Source: Clostridiales bacterium (GTDB lineage: Bacteria; Bacillota; Clostridia; Christensenellales; UBA1750). From it: a stretch of DNA of 58,817 nucleotides. The stretch is taken from assembly GCA_015056005.1 (NCBI GenBank), contig SVHB01000004.1:1-58817 (forward strand). Direction: 5' to 3'. Both the position numbers and the translations under genes were made by a program. Under the pieces are notes generated by a model, which was not told the origin of the DNA, searched no databases, and saw only the letters and a program-made list of their open reading frames with translations. Positions 6,745 through 58,817 of the stretch are shown here, one piece after another (position 1 is the stretch's first letter; each line of letters opens with the position of its first letter).

Positions 6745-8415
6745 ATGAAGAAACTTTCCAAGCTTCTTGTAGTGCTTCTGGCTATGGCTCTGGTCATGTG
6801 CGGCTGCGCAAGCGATACCGGTGATACCGGCACTGCTTCCGGCACCACTTCCGGTTCCTCCACTGGCACTACCACCGGCACCACTTCCGGTACCACCACC
6901 GGCACCACCGACGCAGGTACTGCCGATGCGTTCACCTATCCCATGGAACCCATCACCCTTTCCGTCAACATCGACGAAGTCGACCGTGAATCCATCCCGG
7001 ATTGGGCTCTTGAGTACTACATTTGGGACATCGTTGCCGAAAAGACCGGCGTTACCCTTGAGCGTGTAGGCGCTTCCGGTCAGGGCGGCGGCAACACCGA
7101 AGATATCGCTCTGATGATCGCTTCCGGCGAGCTTCCCGACATCTTCATCAACAACTGGCTCTCCTATCCCGGCGGCCCCGAAGCTGCTATCAAGCAGAAC
7201 CTGATCTTAAAGCTCAACGACATCTACACTCAGTATGCTCCCAACTATTCCAAGGTGCTTGCTGAGAACGAGCGCTGGGCTAAGGATACCGCTACCGACG
7301 ACGGCACCTATTACGTATTCCCCCTGCTGCGTGCAGCACGTGACCAGACCTTCTACGGCTTCGGCTATCGTCAGGATAAGCTCGACGAGTTCGGTCTCAC
7401 CGTTCCCACCACTCCCGATGAGCTCGAAAACGTTCTCCGCGTTTTCCAGCAGAACGGCGCTGAGTGCGGTCTGACCTTCGAATATCGCTTCCTGTTCACC
7501 GGTGAGCAGGGCTACGGCACCGACCTCCAGTCCGGTTTCGGTCTGAAGTCCGGCTTCTATGTAGACGAAGGCAAGGTTCATTTCGGCGAAGCTGAACCCG
7601 CTTACAAGGATTTCATCACCTGGATCAACAAGCTCTATACCGAAGGCCTGATCGACCCCGACATGCCCTCCATCGACAAGGCAACCTCTCTTGCTAAGTT
7701 CTCCAACGGCACTTCCTGGGCTGCTCTGATCATGTCCACCATCAACGTTGCAGAACCCGGTGAGATCAACGACGGTTGGGACACCGTTGGCGGTCCCGCT
7801 CTGGCAACCGCTAAGGGCGAAACTCCCCAGTTCGGTCACATGCAGAACTCCTACGCAGGCAACGCTTCCGCCGCTATCTCCACCGACTGCGAAAACGTTG
7901 AAGCAGCTGCCCGTTACCTTGACTGGTTCTACGGCGAAGACAACCTTGCTACCTATCAGCACGGCGTTGAAGGCTTTGCCTACGCTATCGTTGATGGCGA
8001 ATATACCCGTGCAATGGAACACCTCATCCCCATCGAGGGTGAAGGCGCTGACCAGGTAAAGACCCGTATGAGCTACTCTCATATCGGTACCAACTGGCCC
8101 ATGAAGATGCTCGACGGCATGAGCCACGATCTTGAGATGTATGATTCTCAGAAGCAGATCGGCGAAGCATGGCGTGCACACAACATGGCTGAGCACATCC
8201 TGCCTCCTGTAACCATGACTCAGGACGAAGCAAACGAATATGCAATGCTCTTCACCGACATCGATACCTACATGAGAGAGCAGATCGCCATGTTCATCAT
8301 CGGCACTCGTCCCATGACCGAATTTGACGACTTCCAGAACACTCTCAAGCAGCTGGGCGTAGATCGCGTTATCGAGATCCAGCAGGCCGCTTACGACCGT
8401 TATCTGGCTCGCTAA
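6745..8415 (+). CDS. extracellular solute-binding lipoprotein of the sugar ABC transporter (LplA type)
   Basis: 556 aa. Lipobox LVMCGCAS followed by a Thr/Gly/Ser-rich linker. Paralogue of 730..2355. Lies directly upstream of two permease genes. Confidence 0.9.
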   Translation: MKKLSKLLVVLLAMALVMCGCASDTGDTGTASGTTSGSSTGTTTGTTSGTTTGTTDAGTADAFTYPMEPITLSVNIDEVDRESIPDWALEYYIWDIVAEKTGVTLERVGASGQGGGNTEDIALMIASGELPDIFINNWLSYPGGPEAAIKQNLILKLNDIYTQYAPNYSKVLAENERWAKDTATDDGTYYVFPLLRAARDQTFYGFGYRQDKLDEFGLTVPTTPDELENVLRVFQQNGAECGLTFEYRFLFTGEQGYGTDLQSGFGLKSGFYVDEGKVHFGEAEPAYKDFITWINKLYTEGLIDPDMPSIDKATSLAKFSNGTSWAALIMSTINVAEPGEINDGWDTVGGPALATAKGETPQFGHMQNSYAGNASAAISTDCENVEAAARYLDWFYGEDNLATYQHGVEGFAYAIVDGEYTRAMEHLIPIEGEGADQVKTRMSYSHIGTNWPMKMLDGMSHDLEMYDSQKQIGEAWRAHNMAEHILPPVTMTQDEANEYAMLFTDIDTYMREQIAMFIIGTRPMTEFDDFQNTLKQLGVDRVIEIQQAAYDRYLAR

Positions 8416-8433
8416 TCAAACATATAAAATGCA

Positions 8434-13565: not shown

Positions 13566-14106
13566 TTATGCTTTTTTTGGGAGAAGGCTTTGCCTTCTCC
13601 CAAACCCATCAGCTATCAGGGGGGGATGTTCGAGATGGCTGCGCCCTCTCGAGCTCTGGGCCCAGAGGATTGCATCCTCTGGACTCCGCGGCTGTTTGGT
13701 TGAGTAATTGAATACGTTGGCTTACGCGTTGCCCGTAAAGTGTGGGCAACGCGTGATTGCTTTTAAGGACGGTTATGCGATGGAGGTTTGGACAGCCCAT
13801 CGTCCGTTTCTGTTTTGCGAGAGCAAATTCTAACAGGGTCAGAGTATTTTGCGTGCGCGGATTATGGGTATGTGAAATTTATGACGGCTGGAGAATTGGT
13901 TGGTTTAAAAAGAAGGAAAAGTCGTTTCGCGCACATATCGCACGCCGAAGGCGCATATCGCTCACCGAAGGGGAATATCGCTGCCCGAAGGGGAATATCG
14001 CTGCCCGAAGGGGAATATCGCTGCCCGAAGGGGAATATCGCTGCCCGAAGGGCAATATCGCTTCCGCGCAAGCGGAAATATCGCTGCACTGTAAGTGCAA
14101 TAATGC
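13566..14106 (+). repeat. mosaic hairpin element, locus R1 (one arm plus array cargo; boundaries approximate)
   Basis: hp1a GGGAGAAGGC/GCCTTCTCCC at 13579-13601. hp1b TCGAGA..TCTCGA at 13630-13652. pal2 CCAGAGGAT-TGC-ATCCTCTGG at 13662-13682. CCGCGGC box. hp3 GCGTTGCCC-GTAAAGTGT-GGGCAACGC at 13726-13752. GTATTTTGCGTGCGCGG box near 13843. ATATCGC-hairpin array at 13935-14106. Confidence 0.85.
13966..14065 (+). repeat. 20-nt tandem repeat inside R1
   Basis: CGAAGGGGAATATCGCTGCC occurs four times without change (13966-14045), followed by one diverged unit. Confidence 0.95.
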
Positions 14107-15805: not shown

Positions 15806-16366
15806 GGGGATGGGGAGACGTTTTTTGAGGAAGGGCTTTCAGCCCTCCCTCAAACTCCCTCCCGACCAAGGGATTGCATCCCTTGGAACCCGCGGCATTT
15901 TGGGATCAGGAATGTTATGCTTTTGCGTCGACGTGGCCGTAAAGGGTGGCCACGTCGAAAATAGCAAAGCGCTTATTCAAAAAGGGTCGGAGTATTTGAC
16001 CCAAAGCCTAACTCTCCTAAAAATAAATCATGCGTGACCCACGAGGCGGTCGTGCGGAGCGCGACCGCCAATGATATACGCCTTGCGGCGTGTGATGAAT
16101 GATATATTCCTGCGGAATATGATATATGCGCTGCGCGCACATGATGGTTAGTAACCACCCAACCGTCTAACTCTCCTAAAAATAATTCACGAGTGGCCCA
16201 TACCTGCCGGGCCACTCGTAAGCTGAAGTATGAAATTCCTCAATCCAAAAGCTGCGGGATCCAAGGGATGCAATCCCTTGGTGGATGAGGGTTTGGGAGA
16301 AGGCGAAGCCTTCTTCCAAGAAAGAGAGCTCGAGAGGGCGCAGCCATCTCGAACGTACCCCCAAAA
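15806..16366. repeat. mosaic hairpin element, locus R2 (composite of a forward partial copy and reverse copies)
   Basis: Forward arm: hp1 15827-15851, pal2 15866-15886, hp3 15930-15956. Reverse arm: hp3 16191-16217, pal2 16261-16281, hp1a 16295-16317, hp1b 16330-16352. ATGATAT-variant hairpin array at 16071-16146. A truncated hp3 half lies at 16032-16040. Confidence 0.85.
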
Positions 16367-21165: not shown

Positions 21166-21862
21166 TCTCCTTTTTTGGGGGGGAGTACGTTCGAGAGGTT
21201 TCACCTCTCGAGCTCTCTGACCAAGGGTTTGCAACCCTTGGATCCCGCGGCTTTTTTATGAGTAATTGAATACGTTGGCTTACGCGTTGCCCGTAAAGTA
21301 TGGGCAACGCGTGATTTGTTTTTAGGAAGGTTATGCGGTAGAGATTTGGACGGTCAAGCGATCGCTTCTATTGTTTGTTTGAGGATGCTCATTATAAAGG
21401 CTCTCTCTTGAGGGGGTGACGCGTTAAGCAAACAGTCCGGTGGACTGTTTGCAGCCAAAGTCCGACGCGGGCTTGTTCCGCGGCGCGTCGCTGGCACGGG
21501 AACCGTGACTGATGAGGTGTCCCCCGCGTGCGCTTTTTCTTGGCATGCAGAAAAACGAACGTTATAGCGATATACTCGCTTCGCTCGTGCGATATGCGCC
21601 TTGCGGCGCGCGATATGTGCGCGAGAGGGCTTCTTTCCCTTGTTCAACTAACCGATTCTTCATCCGTCATAAATCTTACGAACGAATAATCCGCGCACAC
21701 AAAATACTTGTCTGTCGCATAAACTTCCACTATCGCATTTGCCGCGCACTTTCGCATAACATCCCGCAATCTCAAAAGCTGCGGGATCCAAGGGTTGCAA
21801 ACCCTTGGGCCCAGAGCTCGAGAGGGCGCAGCCATCTCGAACGTTCCTCCCCCACCGTCCTC
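21166..21862. repeat. mosaic hairpin element, locus R3 (inverted arms, composite cargo)
   Basis: Left arm: hp1 TCGAGAGG/CCTCTCGA 21191-21211, pal2 21221-21241, hp3 21284-21310. Cargo hairpins at 21428-21452, 21463-21490 and 21495-21507, followed by ACTGATGAGGTGTCCCCC at 21508-21525. Reverse ATATCGC array at 21567-21616. Right arm: pal2 21788-21808 and hp1b 21818-21840, with no hp3. Confidence 0.85.
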
Positions 21863-36896: not shown

Positions 36897-37065
36897 GTGA
36901 AATATCCTTTGGATGTGAAATAATGACCTGCGGTCATTGTGAAATTTGATGCTTTGCATCAAGTGAAATGAAATAAATCCGCTCACGCCCGCATGCATTT
37001 CACACGCCGCAGGCGTATTTCACGCACGAAGTGCATTTCACAAATCCCGCAAGGGATTTATTTCG
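36897..37065. repeat. solo array of six small hairpins separated by GTGAAAT (left half) or ATTTCAC (right half)
   Basis: 7-mers at 36897, 36915, 36939 and 36963 (GTGAAAT) and at 36997, 37017 and 37035 (ATTTCAC). Hairpins at 36904-36914, 36922-36938, 36946-36962, 37004-37016, 37024-37034 and 37042-37059. Confidence 0.85.
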
Positions 37066-37068
37066 TTG

Positions 37069-37112: not shown

Positions 37113-37187
<75 letters not shown>

Positions 37188-44337: not shown

Positions 44338-44925
44338 GCTTTTTGTGGGGGTTTGTTTTTTGGGGAAGGGTTTCACCCTTCCCCAAACCCCATCTGACCA
44401 GAGGATTGCATCCTCTGGACTCCGCGGCATTTGGGATCAGGGAATTTAGGCTTTTGCGTCGACGTGGCCGTAAAGGGTGGCCACGTCGAGGATGGCTGAG
44501 TGCTTATTCAAACAGGGTCAAAGTATTTTGCGTGCGCGGATTCCTCGTTCGCGAAATTTATGACGGCTGAAGAATTGGTTACTCTGATAAGCCGCAAAAG
44601 CCCTCTCGCGCACATATCGCAGCCGAAGGCTATATCGCGCGCCGAAGGCGCATATCGCTGCGCCAAAGGCGCAATCTTTCCACGCCGGCATTGGCTGCCG
44701 CAGCATAACCCTCTTCCATATACCGCGAATCCCATCCCACTGCCTGACCCTCCTGAAAATAAATCACGAGGAACCCATACTTTACGGGTTCCTCGTAGGC
44801 TAACGTATAAAATTACTTGATCAAAAAGCCGCGGGATCCAAGGGTTGCAAACCCTTGGTCAGGTGGGTTTTAGGGAGGGCTGAAAGCCATCCCTAACGTC
44901 TCCCTAACGTCCCCCTCGTCTCCCC
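44338..44925. repeat. mosaic hairpin element, locus R4 (complete copy with both arms)
   Basis: Left arm: hp1 44362-44384, pal2 44398-44418, hp3 44461-44487. Cargo: GTATTTTGCGTGCGCGG box and ATATCGC array at 44614-44673. Right arm: hp3 44768-44794, pal2 44838-44858, hp1 44872-44894. Confidence 0.9.
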
Positions 44926-52537: not shown

Positions 52538-54361
52538 ATGAACGATATCTTAAAGCAGAAGCTTGCCGCTCTGCCCGACAGCCCGGGCTCGTATATCATG
52601 AAAAGCGGCGGGCGAATAATATATGTCGGGAAAGCGGTATCGCTCAAAAACAGGGTGCGCTCGTATTTCCAGCAAGGGCGGCCGCATGCCCCAAAGGTGC
52701 AGGCAATGGTCGATAAGATCGACGATTTTGAGACCATCCTCTGCCGCACGGAACTCGAAGCGCTAATACTCGAAAACAACCTGATAAAAAAGCACAAGCC
52801 CTATTACAACATTCTTTTGAAGGACGATAAGACCTACCCTTATGTAAAGGCTGATCTGAAGGAAGCCTTCCCCGCGCTCAGGCTCGTCCGCCGCGTTGAA
52901 AAGGACGGGGCAAAATACTTCGGCCCCTATTTCGGCGCTACAATGGTAAGGGAAATACTTGATGTTGTTGCCGACGCATTCCCTCTTCGCACCTGCACCC
53001 GCGATATGGATAAGGTATATGACCGTCCCTGCGTCAGGTGGGAGATCGGCAAGTGTTTGGGTCCCTGCGTGTACAAGCTCTGCAAGGAATCCTATGATAA
53101 CGCCCTTCACGGCGCTATCCGCTTCCTGTCGGGAGATACAAAGGCGGTGGTCGACGCGCTGCGTGAAAAGATGCTCGATTATTCCAAACAGATGAAATTC
53201 GAGCAGGCGGCAATGGTCAGGGACGCGATAGAGCGAATCGGCAGGCTGACCGAGCGCCAGAGGGCGTTTTCCACCTCGCTCACAGACAGAGACGCTGTTG
53301 CCATCGCGGCTTGCGGGCTCGATACCGTTGCGCAGGTGCTCTACATTCGCGACGGCAGGCTTTCCGGCAGCGAATATTTCAGGCTCGAAAACGCGCTTGA
53401 GGAGGAAACGGGAGAAGTCCTGCGCGATTTCCTTCTCCAGCACTACGATGACGGGCAGTTCATCCCCAAAGAAATACTGCTTGAAACCGATTGCGCCGAT
53501 ATGGCGGTCGTTGAAGAGATACTCTCCGATGTGCGCGGCGGCAAGGTCGATATCCATGTTCCCCAAAGGGGCGAAAAGAAGTCGGTCGTTGATATGGCGG
53601 CGAAGAACGCCAAGGAAAACGCGCTGAAGCTTCACGAGCGCTTGAGCCGAAAATACGAGCGCACCATGGGTGCTTCAAAGGAGCTTGCCGAGATACTCGG
53701 TATCCCGATTCCAAGGCGCATGGAGTGCTATGATATCTCGAATTTTCAGGGCGATCAGTCCGTAGCGTCCATGGTCGTGTTCATAAACGGCGAGCCTGCG
53801 CGCAAGGAGTACAGGCATTTCAAGATAAAGACGGTCGAAGGTCCGAACGATTTTGCGTCCATGGCGGAGGTCATCACAAGAAGGTTCACGCGCCTTAAAA
53901 ACGGCGACGCGTCCTTTTCGGATGCGCCCGATCTTGTCATCATCGACGGCGGCAAGGGTCAGCTTGGTTATGCCTTGGAAGCCTTTGGCAAGGTCGACCC
54001 GCCCTGCAGGCCGCATTTCTTCTCGCTTGCCGAGCAGTTTGAGGAGGTTTATTCTCCCGATTCTTCCGACCCGATCATAATCGACCGACACAGCGATGCG
54101 CTCCACCTTCTGCAGTCCATCCGCGATGAGGCGCACAGGTTTGCAATAACCCATCACCGCGCGCTGAGGCAAAAGAAAACCGTTCATTCTCAGCTCGACG
54201 ATATCCCCGGCATCGGCCCCGCAAGGCGCAGAGCTTTGCTTGCCCATTTCAAGTCCTATGCCGCAATGTCAAAAGCAACTATCGAAGAGCTCACCACCGT
54301 TCAAGGCATGAACGCCCCCGCCGCTCAGGCTGTGTACGAGCATTTCAGGAGGAAGGGGTAG
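52538..54361 (+). CDS. uvrC: excinuclease ABC subunit C
   Basis: 607 aa. GIY-YIG N-terminus (GSYIMKSGGRIIYVGKA) and a C-terminal HhH region. Confidence 0.97.
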   Translation: MNDILKQKLAALPDSPGSYIMKSGGRIIYVGKAVSLKNRVRSYFQQGRPHAPKVQAMVDKIDDFETILCRTELEALILENNLIKKHKPYYNILLKDDKTYPYVKADLKEAFPALRLVRRVEKDGAKYFGPYFGATMVREILDVVADAFPLRTCTRDMDKVYDRPCVRWEIGKCLGPCVYKLCKESYDNALHGAIRFLSGDTKAVVDALREKMLDYSKQMKFEQAAMVRDAIERIGRLTERQRAFSTSLTDRDAVAIAACGLDTVAQVLYIRDGRLSGSEYFRLENALEEETGEVLRDFLLQHYDDGQFIPKEILLETDCADMAVVEEILSDVRGGKVDIHVPQRGEKKSVVDMAAKNAKENALKLHERLSRKYERTMGASKELAEILGIPIPRRMECYDISNFQGDQSVASMVVFINGEPARKEYRHFKIKTVEGPNDFASMAEVITRRFTRLKNGDASFSDAPDLVIIDGGKGQLGYALEAFGKVDPPCRPHFFSLAEQFEEVYSPDSSDPIIIDRHSDALHLLQSIRDEAHRFAITHHRALRQKKTVHSQLDDIPGIGPARRRALLAHFKSYAAMSKATIEELTTVQGMNAPAAQAVYEHFRRKG

Positions 54362-54950
54362 GAGGACGGGGGGACGATTTTTGGAAGAAGGCGTTGCCTT
54401 CTCCCAAACCCTCATCCACCAAGGGTTTGCAACCCTTGGAACCCGCGGCATTGGGAATGTATAATTTCATACGATAGCTTACGAGGAACCCGTAAAGTAT
54501 GGGTTCCTCGTGATTGTTTTTTTGGTTGTTAAGCAATCGTTCTGTAATACAACAGCAAATAATTGTGTGGACACCTCATCAGTCACGCCAAGCGTGACAG
54601 CTTCCCCTCAAGGGGAAGCCAAGAAAACCTCGTACTCAAACATTTACGGTTATGTAGAGCTTGTAAGTCTGCAAACGTATGAAACAACTGATATATCTCG
54701 GCTTCTCCTAGAGGAGAAGCTGTCGCCTTTAGGCGACTGATGAGGTGTCACCGCTTTTTATTTGCTGTTGTATAGCAGAACGGCTGCATAACTCTCCTGA
54801 AAATAAATCACGCGTGACCCATACTTTACGGGTCACGCGTAAACAAACGTATTTAATTTCCGCAGCCAAAAGCCGCGGGATCCAAGGGATGCAATCCCTT
54901 GGTCAGGTGGGTCTTAGGGAGGGGTGAAACCCATCCCTAAAAACGTCTTC
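54362..54950. repeat. mosaic hairpin element, locus R5 (complete copy with a different cargo)
   Basis: Left arm: hp1 54383-54405, pal2 54419-54439, hp3 54483-54509. Cargo: nested palindromic multi-hairpin domain at 54540-54780. Right arm: hp3 54812-54838, pal2 54882-54902, hp1 54916-54938. Confidence 0.9.
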
Positions 54951-54955
54951 CTCTA

Positions 54956-56284
54956 TTAAGCCTCTCTGCGCTTTGCGGTGGCTACGAGGGCCAGACCTGC
55001 CATCATGAGGACGGCTGCTGCGTAGTAGTGAGCATCAACACCGGTCTTGGGGATGGAGTTGCCGGAGGAAGATCCGGGCAGGCTGCCGCCGGGAACGGTG
55101 TAGTTGGGGTAGCTGGGATAAGTGGGAACAGAAGGAACGACGGGAGCGGGGTTGGAAACATAACCGCCGGTGGTCACGAATGCAACGGGATCGCCGTAAA
55201 CATAGCCATTGCCTGCAATGCCGACTGCGCGGACATAGTAAGCGGTGCCGGGCTTGAGACCGGTGACCTTGAGAGCGTAAGCGCCGTTAGCGTCGCTGCC
55301 CCAGAGGGTATCGCCCCAGTTGCCGTTAGCCTTGCGAACCTGGAAACCTGCCTTGGAGATGCCGTTGGAGGCAAAGCCGTTCAGGGTCGCGTTGGCAGAG
55401 GAGATGTTGGTGGGGTTGTTGGTAATTACATAGCTGTAATAAGTGGTGGGATAGTTGGGCACATAACCGTAACCGGGGATGTAATAACCATAACCGGGCA
55501 CATAGTAATAACCGTTGTAGTAATAGCCGTTACCGGGAACAACAACACCGGGAATAATGGTTTCGGGCTTCTCGTCGATTTGATCCTGAGTGATGGTGAA
55601 GGATCCGGTTGCGATCTGAGCGGGAGTTCTGCCATCAGAATAGTTGGCAATTGCCTTAAATTCATAGGTACCGGGGGTCATTTTACCAATGTTCATGGAA
55701 CCGGACCAAGTGTTTCCGCTCTTAGTGCCGGAAACGGAGTACATATTAAGACCGTTTACGGTATAGGTGAAAGTAACGCCGGTAATAGTAACAGGGTTAC
55801 CGTCCTTGACAGGAAGAGAGAAAGTGACCTTGCCGCCGCTTACAGAAGAAGAAACAGCACCGTCAACGGTAGGATCCTGACCATAGGCAACCTTGGTAGT
55901 AGCAGAGACTACAGAGTCATCAATGATGACGTTTCCACCAACACTGCACAGGCTCTTGAAGTAGTAAGTGGTATCAGCAGAAAGAGAAGAGATAGTTGCG
56001 CTGACAGTGCCGCCCGTTAAAGGATTGGAAGTATCTGCAGTAGCAATTCTAAATCCGGTTATACTGGACATATCGGGGGTGGTGCTATAGTAAACACTGA
56101 TAAATTCAACAGTCTCAGATGCTCCTACAGTGTACGGAACGCTGATGGTAGCGCTGGTATCTGTTACATTGGTAATAGAAGGAGCGCTGGTAGATGAAGT
56201 TGCCTGAGCCATCGCCGTAGCCGGGGCCATGAGGCAAAGGAGCATTGCAACAAGAGTGATGAGTGAAACAAAACGTTTGCTCAT
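54956..56284 (-). CDS. cell-wall-anchored surface protein with Fn3-like domains and an (I)PKTG sorting signal
   Basis: Signal peptide ...APATAMAQA. Two Fn3-like segments. Tyr/Gly-rich linker. C-terminal IPKTG, then a hydrophobic helix, then KRREA. Confidence 0.8.
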   Translation of the reverse strand: MSKRFVSLITLVAMLLCLMAPATAMAQATSSTSAPSITNVTDTSATISVPYTVGASETVEFISVYYSTTPDMSSITGFRIATADTSNPLTGGTVSATISSLSADTTYYFKSLCSVGGNVIIDDSVVSATTKVAYGQDPTVDGAVSSSVSGGKVTFSLPVKDGNPVTITGVTFTYTVNGLNMYSVSGTKSGNTWSGSMNIGKMTPGTYEFKAIANYSDGRTPAQIATGSFTITQDQIDEKPETIIPGVVVPGNGYYYNGYYYVPGYGYYIPGYGYVPNYPTTYYSYVITNNPTNISSANATLNGFASNGISKAGFQVRKANGNWGDTLWGSDANGAYALKVTGLKPGTAYYVRAVGIAGNGYVYGDPVAFVTTGGYVSNPAPVVPSVPTYPSYPNYTVPGGSLPGSSSGNSIPKTGVDAHYYAAAVLMMAGLALVATAKRREA

Positions 56285-58641: not shown

Positions 58642-58817
58642 TTTTTTTGGAAGAAGGCTTCGCCTTCTCCCAAGCCCTCATCCACCAGAGGATTGCATCC
58701 TCTGGACTCCGCGGCTTTGGGTTCAGGTGATTTTATACTTTTGCTTACGATGAACCCGTAAAGTATGGGTTCATCGTGATCGTCTTTGAGAACGATCAAA
58801 CTATTTACGTGCGCGTA
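58642..58817 (+). repeat. mosaic hairpin element, locus R6 (arm only; cut by the window end)
   Basis: hp1 58649-58671, pal2 58684-58704, hp3 GATGAACCC-GTAAAGTAT-GGGTTCATC 58749-58775. The last bases CTATTTACGTGCGCG begin the conserved GTATTTTGCGTGCGCGG box. Confidence 0.85.

Follow-up and report, generated by a model that had tools for sequence, protein, structure and literature searches.

Location and Content of R5

The stretch analyzed here, hereafter the window, comprises the 58,817 nt of contig SVHB01000004.1 (assembly GCA_015056005.1) from a Clostridiales bacterium, and the element under study, R5, is an intergenic repeat within it that carries an inverted pair of hairpin-forming units of about 50 nt. 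R5 is flanked by two convergent genes, namely uvrC (52538-54361, + strand; six Pfam UvrC/GIY-YIG/HhH families recorded, two of them weak) and a 442-aa open reading frame (ORF; 54956-56284, - strand). It is a member of a local repeat family with six intergenic copies, R1 to R6 (13619-14100, 15844-16323, 21204-21851, 44356-44900, 54378-54943, and 58643-58817), which have inverted arms of about 150 nt in common and a different interior, or cargo, in each copy. That R4 and R5 possess the same arms around different interiors had been remarked in an earlier note on this DNA and is borne out by the direct and inverted repeat families. Three other contigs of this species carry the R5 locus in nearly identical form. 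The closest UvrC relatives have identities of 69% and 61% and are followed by other genes, which places R5 at a synteny break; in the uvrC relatives L198 and L199, the downstream genes are those for a HAD hydrolase and an HPr kinase.

The left arm of R5 spans 54378-54525 (+) and is common to R1-R4 and R6, as traced by repeat families D5-D8, I1, and I4 and by half-to-half alignment. The right arm spans 54784-54943 (-) and has 84% identity to the right arm of R4 at 44740-44896 (repeat family D2). Each arm of the R family contains a hairpin of 14-16 bp followed by a T-rich run, which always faces inward (left arms on the + strand, right arms on the - strand). In R5 these are found at 54479-54513 (+), downstream of uvrC, with a 16-bp stem followed by TTGTTTTTTT and equivalents in R1 and R3, and at 54808-54842 (-), downstream of the 442-aa ORF, with a 16-bp stem followed by TTTATTTTCA and equivalents in R2 and R4. 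Both have the G+C-rich hairpin and subsequent T run of an intrinsic terminator, so the interior of R5 lies between two convergent terminator-like sites. No promoter-like site was found within the cargo, the only such match in the element being TTGGAA-18-TATAAT at 54436-54465 in the left arm, whose predicted start is just upstream of the left terminator-like hairpin.

Between the arms lies an outer stem which is unique to the R5 locus. Its halves had been described at 54540-54562 and 54758-54780 with two mismatches, and both sequences and coordinates were verified; the complementarity is, however, longer, amounting to 35 nt (54528-54562 with 54758-54792, inverted repeat I3) at 86%. No further copy of these arms occurs in the window with up to three mismatches allowed. 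The stem encloses two units of type A, each made up of a first hairpin (P1), a second hairpin (P2), and a tail. Unit 1 (54569-54620, -) has P1 GGCTTCCCC-TTGA-GGGGAAGCT, P2 GTCACGC-TTG-GCGTGAC, and tail TGATGAGGTG, and the same unit is also present in viral and genome contigs. Unit 2 (54700-54750, +) has P1 GGCTTCTCC-TAGA-GGAGAAGCT, in which a C>T and a G>A change compensate one another, P2 GTCGCC-TTTA-GGCGAC, and again tail TGATGAGGTG. The linker between the two P1 hairpins (54621-54699) is unpaired and A+T-richer, and no homolog of it was found.

Four hairpins had been read in this region at 54582-54598, 54600-54619, 54701-54720, and 54722-54737. They are present at these positions, but two of them, GCTTCCCCT and GCTTCTCCT, had been given loops of 2 nt, which are sterically impossible, and are therefore better described as 8-bp stems with 4-nt loops. 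A perfect inner stem of 12 nt likewise exists, although its true length is 15 nt (54570-54584 with 54735-54749). Rather than a closing helix under selection of its own, this stem is simply what results when the unit's conserved tail appears twice, the two copies being inverted.

Folding and Palindromy of R5

The region 54528-54792 folds far better than shuffled controls, with z-scores of -13.3 (RNA, + strand), -15.8 (RNA, - strand), and -11.2 (DNA) and with none of 200 shuffles folding as well, so it is not random intergenic DNA, in agreement with the earlier note. The architecture proposed with it, a closing helix leading into a multi-way junction, fares less well, having an energy of -98.7 kcal/mol vs. 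-121.8 kcal/mol for the minimum-energy fold, which is one long imperfect hairpin. The palindromy also exceeds the interval 54540-54780 to which it had been assigned, as the entire 566-nt element (54378-54943) forms one imperfect palindrome, with a mean column identity of 83% between its left half and the reverse complement of its right half.

Where the two halves differ in their stems, the differences are compensated. This applies to P1 (CCCC/GGGG vs. CTCC/GGAG), to P2 (ACGC/GCGT vs. GCC/GGC), and to the arm hairpin (ACGAGGAACCC vs. ACGCGTGACCC). As compensation takes place within each half, it is the local hairpins and not the long-range helices which evolution has kept. The remark that hairpins at mirror positions are unlike in sequence and alike in shape is correct and was in this respect the most informative part of the earlier note.

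A discrete RNA domain of about 240 nt with two nested closing stems was not recovered elsewhere, only the two units of about 50 nt having homologs. When compared with around 190 unit-bearing loci, the R5 cargo matched solely at cargo positions 43-97 and 171-222, corresponding to the two units, and its outer stem, the centre of about 80 nt, and the arms were without a match in these loci, in phages, or in plasmids. R5 as a whole had nothing similar in phage and plasmid collections by blastn, and a phage or plasmid origin of the entire element was rejected accordingly. Of the two forms in which a structured domain had been suggested, single-stranded DNA (ssDNA) is nearer to what the evidence favors, whereas a discrete RNA of about 240 nt is not supported.

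Structure of the Repeat Unit

Of the three copies of the 13-mer CTGATGAGGTGTC in the window, two lie in R5 and one in R3. A scan of IMG/VR for GACTGATGAGGTGTC retrieved, among chance matches, about 15 unrelated contigs in which a variable short hairpin and a near-invariant GGCTTCCCCTTGAGGGGAAGC lie upstream, and the tail was recovered in turn when P1 served as the query. The unit thus delimited (about 50 nt) has the order P1, P2, tail. P1 is a 9-bp stem of conserved sequence (GGCUUCCCC-UUGA-GGGGAAGCU, loop UUGA), P2 is a stem of 5-10 bp which is closed by G-C, free in sequence, and freely covarying, and the tail of type A is a conserved 10-nt sequence, (C)UGAUGAGGUG. A second flavor, type B, is characterized by GCCUUCCCC...GGGGAAGGU together with (C)GGAUGAGGUG as its tail. 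Comparison of the two types shows the second pair of P1 to covary between G-C and C-G (51 vs. 43).

Covariation was evaluated on a motif-selected alignment of 102 distinct units (A2). In this alignment 91.8% of cells are paired, vs. 78.4% with partners shuffled and 40-56% with partners slid, and both sides are changed in 192 cells vs. 65 in shuffles. The inner pairs of P2 each display four to five pair types, and RNAalifold independently predicted the identical two helices. In an independent, protein-selected sample the paired proportion is 93.4% vs. 76.7%, and each of the 15 pairs shows double changes. Such strong covariation in two independent samples upholds the view that the local hairpins are under structural selection.

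A covariance model (model R1), built from units of unrelated genomes, identified in the window only the two units of R5, unit 1 with 69.5 bits (E 8.7e-21) and unit 2 with 64.6 bits (E 3.4e-19), the hairpin pairs being matched at E of about 1e-20, along with a remnant lacking P1 in R3 (21482-21522, +; 28.5 bits, E 1.2e-7). The latter retains P2 GGCACGG-GAA-CCGTGAC and, as its tail, the exact 13-mer CTGATGAGGTGTC.

The loops of P2 are mostly GNA closed by C-G (GAA 45, GCA 22, GUA 10, and GGA 8, n = 183). d(C-GNA-G) is an unusually stable DNA mini-hairpin with a triloop, and C-GNA-G read on the opposite strand is the C(UNCG)G RNA tetraloop. As the loop is thus stable as DNA on one strand and as RNA on the other, it does not decide between the two. 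The folding strand is better indicated by the pairs themselves. With symmetric scoring on the unit's own strand, G-U outnumbers A-C in P2 by 21 to 7, and in 83 of the 102 units a base pair of P1 is formed by G-U; together these point to the one reading P1-P2-tail.

No Rfam family was assigned to the unit at gathering thresholds over the window, the best match being whalefall-1 (RF01762) at 18.6 bits vs. a gathering score of 37. With E-values up to 10 over 54300-55000, only sub-threshold matches to whalefall-1 (18.6, 14.7, and 14.6 bits), whose signal lies exactly on the two R5 units, and to miRNA precursors (long hairpin) were obtained, and in six unit-bearing viral loci nothing was found on the unit. 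Neither P1 nor P2 is followed by a run of T, and this feature of intrinsic terminators is therefore absent from the unit. A hammerhead ribozyme was considered on account of CUGAUGAG and GUC, and was rejected because only the CUGAUGA string is present, without the GAAA box or a third stem, the would-be cleavage position is a G, and no Rfam hammerhead match appears even at E up to 10. A protein-coding unit was also ruled out, as changes in P2 length are out of frame.

Distribution and Arrangement of the Units

Two scans of viral contigs found the unit in 46 and 37 stretches respectively, with terminase, portal, and major head (capsid) genes among its neighbors. A scan of one genome per GTDB species yielded at least 120 unit-bearing stretches, mostly from Clostridia, for which the carriers listed include Oscillospiraceae, Lachnospiraceae, Ruminococcus, Acutalibacteraceae, Christensenellales, and Monoglobus. 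Among the matches listed there are also two Bifidobacterium isolates and one Anaerolineaceae metagenome-assembled genome. The listed carriers that are in culture include Pseudobutyrivibrio sp. OR37, Lachnospiraceae bacterium NE2001, Neglectibacter timonensis SN17, Bifidobacterium vansinderenii, and B. callimiconis. Across these carriers P1 and the tail are near-invariant and P2 is hypervariable yet paired, and the unit is a conserved, covarying structure present across phyla and phages. It is dispersed over many genomes and contexts, with identical units of 45-50 nt found in up to nine unrelated ones. A single conserved neighbor gene was sought and not found for the unit at large, the largest neighbor cluster accounting for 12 of about 190 loci; this cluster turned out to be DUF559, which is described below.

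In other genomes the units fold individually and occur as singles, as tandems, and above all as inverted pairs, while clusters also exist, an example being L129 with the orientations -,+,-,+. The two flavors pair with each other in inverted orientation, 77 of 79 inverted pairs being combinations of A with B. Convergent pairs, in which the tails point inward (n = 60), have spacers of either 2 to about 190 nt or about 347 nt. In 14 of the divergent pairs, with tails outward (n = 26), about 22-29 nt separate the P1 hairpins (regex gap 30-42 nt). Gene starts are not enriched behind the tail, a start codon opening an ORF of at least 60 aa being found after 10% of tails vs. 13% at random positions (230 units), so a general role as a portable ribosome-binding site is unsupported. 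In L097 (4514-4640) and L103 (3073-3125), short motifs that include CGAAG hairpins (TTCATT plus hairpin; TTTCCTAGTCCC) form mini-arrays between paired units and recall the ATATCGC arrays of R1 and R4.

The Associated DUF559 Nuclease Gene

The convergent spacers of about 347 nt house an ORF of 120-130 aa with a DUF559 domain (PF04480, E 4e-30). The solved structures closest to this unit-flanked protein are 3HRL (E 6e-19) and, weakly, the homing endonuclease I-Bth0305I (3R3P, E 0.006), and it also matches homing-endonuclease profiles of PADLOC and PHROGs. Vsr, DUF559, and I-Bth0305I have been grouped together (PMC3424549), and the product is, as predicted from its sequence, a Vsr-like PD-(D/E)xK nuclease. 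The family is large, with at least 7,959 clusters (90% identity) at E ≤ 1e-20 for one query, many of them on contigs below 2 kb.

In full cassettes the ORF occupies exactly the space between both tails and can point either way with respect to the A and B units. Its ribosome-binding site comes from the tail, with GAGGUG located 3-8 nt upstream of the AUG, and the stop codon lies inside the reverse-complemented unit, giving the C-terminus ...NTSSVTS* or sometimes ...SPSPQGEG. C-termini read in this way at L129, L138, L078, and L172 are ...TSSVTS*, ...TSSASLCSAPSPQGEGK, and ...SGSPSPQGEGVPHP. As these residues are translated from the unit, annotated proteins end in repeat-derived stretches whose length varies. 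At its 3′ end the cassette mRNA carries CACCUCAUC, the exact complement of the tail, and this complementarity between 5′ tail and 3′ anti-tail suggests that the cassettes may sequester their own translation start.

To remove the bias of motif selection, 80 metagenome and two viral loci were fetched by DUF559 homology alone and searched with model R1. A unit was found within 120 nt of the DUF559 ORF in 62 of these 82 loci, and among the 32 loci with a product of 60% or more identity to the query the figure is 29. Within this subfamily, units flank the DUF559 gene very often. More distant homologs (about 56% identity) were observed next to weaker unit-like hairpins, which are arrayed in tandem on the same strand with a period of 50 nt, namely at L255 (792-930), L262 (559-647), and L268 (945-1033 and 1592-1780).

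Nature of the R5 Cargo

The R5 pair belongs to a dispersed repeat that typically brackets a DUF559 gene, and as such looks like gene-less selfish repeat DNA and not like an RNA gene. The cargo is more probably than otherwise a gene-less, non-autonomous inverted pair of a nuclease-associated double-hairpin repeat, similar in kind to the repetitive extragenic palindromes (REPs) and bacterial interspersed mosaic elements (BIMEs) of other bacteria. Its full form would be a cassette with the arrangement unit> DUF559 <unit, in which the gene is of about 120 aa. The units may be recognized as local hairpins of their own strand, either by the nuclease associated with them or by a factor of the host and most likely while the DNA is single-stranded or extruded, and may spread or persist as selfish DNA in the manner of REPs and BIMEs. 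Pairs without an ORF would then be non-autonomous or relic copies, the R5 pair being one at the center of an intergenic repeat that is itself palindromic, with a convergent terminator-like hairpin on either side. The nested stems would arise from the inverted arrangement and would not themselves be selected. The palindrome of R5 could be mistaken for an RNA gene, and is explained by a dispersed repeat unit. R5 is a real and non-random copy, atypical and probably inert, not a 240-nt RNA gene, and the pair is probably transcriptionally silent and without a dedicated cellular function.

A number of observations weigh against such a mobile, nuclease-associated repeat. The P2 loops do not separate action as DNA from action as RNA, since one strand gives stable DNA triloops and its opposite gives UNCG RNA tetraloops, and DUF559 is not a known transposase. 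There is no DUF559 gene or credible remnant of one in the window; a candidate remnant in R3 was dismissed, its tblastn match (E 0.9) being largely the unit-encoded TSSVT and a profile hidden Markov model finding nothing. The window also has, in 59 kb, two units and one remnant only. R5 itself is atypical in being an A/A pair, a combination found in two of 23 divergent pairs, with a 79-nt linker and an outer stem; extended flanking stems accompany three of 21 scored divergent pairs (R5, L095, and L193). Insertion at the apex of pre-existing palindromes was entertained as a general rule and abandoned, since it holds for the window, L095, and L193 alone (n = 21). No consistent target-site duplication flanks the pairs, and no presence/absence polymorphism was found among the fetched loci, nor an empty site by way of the UvrC relatives (69% and 61% identical, other downstream genes). 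Identical DUF559 proteins in several contexts were also looked for, and the one identical protein in question (P0228) has a single genomic context in 22 contigs.

An alternative is that the units act at the RNA level, as cis elements comprising stabilizing hairpins at the 5′ and 3′ ends and a ribosome-binding site which can be sequestered by the complementary tail of the partner. They would then not be mobile, and R5 would represent relics of lost cassettes, or barriers to RNA decay or termination between convergent genes. The GAGGUG 3-8 nt before the AUG and its exact complement CACCUCAUC at the mRNA 3′ end are in keeping with this, as are the UNCG tetraloops of the opposite strand and a perfect 17-bp hairpin which sequesters AUGAGGUG at the start of the Escherichia coli gene ycjD (see below). 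Against it, tails in 230 units precede ORF starts (≥60 aa) no more often than random positions do (10% vs. 13%), the G-U pairs lie on the unit's own strand regardless of orientation to the neighboring gene, and the units are scattered over unrelated contexts, phage structural modules included. In R5, moreover, the interior is bounded by inward terminator-like hairpins with the sole promoter-like site upstream of the left one, and we regard an RNA-level role as unlikely. It is very improbable indeed that R5 carries as its payload, in the whole region of about 240 nt, a structured non-coding RNA standing on its own, or an ssDNA domain dedicated as such, with closing helix and multi-way junction. 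Conservation is confined to the two 50-nt units, which are found elsewhere in many other arrangements, and the outer stem, center, and overall architecture are without a homolog in the collections searched, where no second locus with a matching outer stem, units, and center was present. The very low folding energy (z -13 to -16), the compensatory changes maintaining the local hairpins, and the near-identity across four contigs of the same species all speak for such a domain, but a single hairpin is better than the junction by about 23 kcal/mol, there is no Rfam match, and the cargo has no promoter-like site and has inward terminator-like hairpins on both sides.

A further possibility is that DUF559 is a free-standing homing endonuclease gene, the units being merely co-converted DNA and sites with units only, such as R5, being scars left after decay of the gene. 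The relationship to the Vsr-like I-Bth0305I (PMC3424549) and the homing-endonuclease profiles matched in PADLOC and PHROGs accord with this, the cassettes do lie between unrelated genes, phage morphogenesis genes among them, and convergent spacers of 2 to about 190 nt are what progressive deletion would give. The divergent pairs, however, with their tails outward and a fairly constant linker of about 22-29 nt in 14 of 26, are not obvious deletion scars, and in R5, where the tails point outward, neither side holds a remnant of an ORF. The conservation of P1 and the tail is also far beyond what a decaying scar should show, and homing with scar formation appears quite improbable as the origin of R5. 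A search for an occupied/empty allele pair among the fetched loci found none.

Comparison with Known Repeats and Mobile Elements

The closest parallels to a nuclease-associated selfish repeat are the REP/BIME and REPIN-RAYT systems of E. coli and Pseudomonas. Like these, the units are short extragenic hairpins of two flavors (compare Y and Z) in alternating orientation, occurring as singles, inverted doublets, and clusters with their structure kept by compensatory change, and inverted units also flank a small gene of nuclease type. Analogous as the architecture is, the gene is a DUF559 (PF04480) PD-(D/E)xK gene and not an HUH/Y1 RAYT transposase. Unlike REPs, the unit lacks a 5′ GTAG before P1 and consists of two hairpins plus a conserved 10-nt tail, and its P1 and tail stay conserved from phylum to phylum and in phages, in contrast to the species-specific REPs. 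Since partner units differ in P2 and fold separately, a pair does not form the single long hairpin of a REPIN.

The pneumococcal BOX and RUP and the Neisseria Correia/NEMIS elements are likewise modular, foldable intergenic repeats without a transposase of their own which are sometimes nested, much as the units sit inside the arms of R5. They have no sequence similarity to the unit, however, and are confined to one genus each, and for BOX no associated nuclease gene is known. Vsr-like homing endonuclease genes (I-Bth0305I, with T4 seg/mob as an analog in lifestyle) are also small selfish nuclease genes between unrelated genes, including those of phage structural modules, and with I-Bth0305I there is a detectable sequence relationship (3R3P, E 0.006). 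For homing endonuclease genes, in contrast to the DUF559 cassettes, neither bracketing by conserved hairpin repeats nor a legacy of dispersed ORF-less repeat pairs is known. The IS200/IS605 elements and the gene-less PATEs have distinct left and right subterminal hairpins recognized as ssDNA, as well as ORF-less derivatives, but there is no TnpA or TnpB gene nearby and no conserved cleavage tetranucleotide is seen, and the DUF559 ORF can face both ways with respect to the A and B units. R5 does not conform to a miniature inverted-repeat transposable element either; it does have inverted ends, although its outer stem and center are single-copy and there is no consistent duplication. Regarding Rfam families, whalefall-1 coincides exactly with both R5 units in its sub-threshold matches, yet at 18.6 bits against a gathering score of 37 the unit is not a member, and Gut-1 (RF01706) matches the ATATCGC hairpin array at the equivalent position in R1 and does not match R5.

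In E. coli K-12 the sole DUF559 gene is ycjD (L290, NC_000913.3 1351000-1351830). Its start lies within AUGAGGUG, locked in a perfect 17-bp hairpin (TCACCTCATTCTGACAA / TTGTCAGAATGAGGTGA), and the end of the ORF has a CCCTC...GAGGG hairpin. Just downstream is a GC-rich repeat, which is probably boxC in view of the fabI (envM) locus. This repeat is found at a median of 16 places per genome in 5,426 E. coli genomes. boxC has been described as a 56-bp family of around 32 copies (PMC2267715). The repeat beside ycjD resembles the unit in architecture only, having a CCCC...GGGG hairpin followed by GAGGGG and no P2, and the covariance model of the Clostridial unit gave 4.0 bits on it, i.e., no match. 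As the model fails, this is an architectural analogy and not membership.

A broader proposal, which we put forward tentatively and hold to be doubtful at present, is that the unit and DUF559 constitute an unrecognized cross-phylum counterpart of REPIN-RAYT, in which the Vsr-like PD-(D/E)xK nuclease, in place of an HUH transposase, would recognize the A/B hairpin ends and disseminate or maintain them in phages and bacterial chromosomes, the ycjD/boxC-like repeat being the enterobacterial version. If correct, this would provide a testable function for DUF559 and for a repeat family unexplained since the 1990s. Extragenic palindromic repeats tied to a nuclease gene are already known as a kind of element; what is new is the enzyme class, the two-hairpin-plus-tail unit, and the distribution across phyla and phages. 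A literature search found no paper which carries the unit sequence or connects hairpin repeats with DUF559 or ycjD. For the DUF559 family, very large and of largely uncharacterized function, the unit offers a concrete substrate in enzyme tests. Short hairpin repeats outside the Proteobacteria are poorly understood, and the unit suggests a second, non-HUH route to REP-like repeats. In practical terms, the repeat probably breaks metagenome assemblies, and its reverse complement reads into the C-termini of annotated proteins (...TSS...SPSPQGEG).

Other Features of the Window

The density of the R family, one copy per approximately 10 kb, is striking. Besides the terminator-like hairpin, its arms carry an outer hairpin of the GGAGAAGGC/GCCTTCTCC type and a hairpin CCAAGGG-TTGCAA-CCCTTGG, of which there is a compensated variant, CCAGAGG...CCTCTGG. 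Read outward, the arms (54400-54449; also, e.g., 16255-16320) have a hairpin, then TGGATGAGGG, then a GGGAGAAGGC...GCCTTCTTCC hairpin, an order and sequence resembling P2-tail-P1 of the unit, with just 3.8 bits from the covariance model. In addition to the remnant without P1, R3 (21400-21710) contains a GCGATAT hairpin array in the opposite orientation to the arrays of R1 and R4, its segment 21604-21708 being inverted relative to 13843-13947. A CAGTCCGGTGGAC(T/A)GT hairpin at 21436-21452 in R3 is also found adjoining units in a viral contig (L019, 365-385).

Two matches to Rfam Gut-1 were obtained, at 14010-14086 (-, 51 bits) and at 36992-37068 (-, 76.6 bits). The first is within the array of ATATCGC and CGAAG hairpins of R1, while the second adjoins a tRNA-Asn gene (37113-37187, -). 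Gut-1 was published as a small RNA of gut metagenomes and appears in R1 as a hairpin array with a 20-nt period inside a repeat element.

The 442-aa ORF convergent with uvrC has internal 39-nt repeats rich in G/Y/P/N codons (55457-55534), and from its sequence the product looks like a repetitive surface or secreted protein. Near the start of the window, two direct repeats of about 71% identity, 877-1176 with 6937-7236 and 2087-2360 with 8147-8420, are both spaced by 6,060 nt and probably mark a tandem duplication of a gene block (ORFs of 541 and 556 aa).

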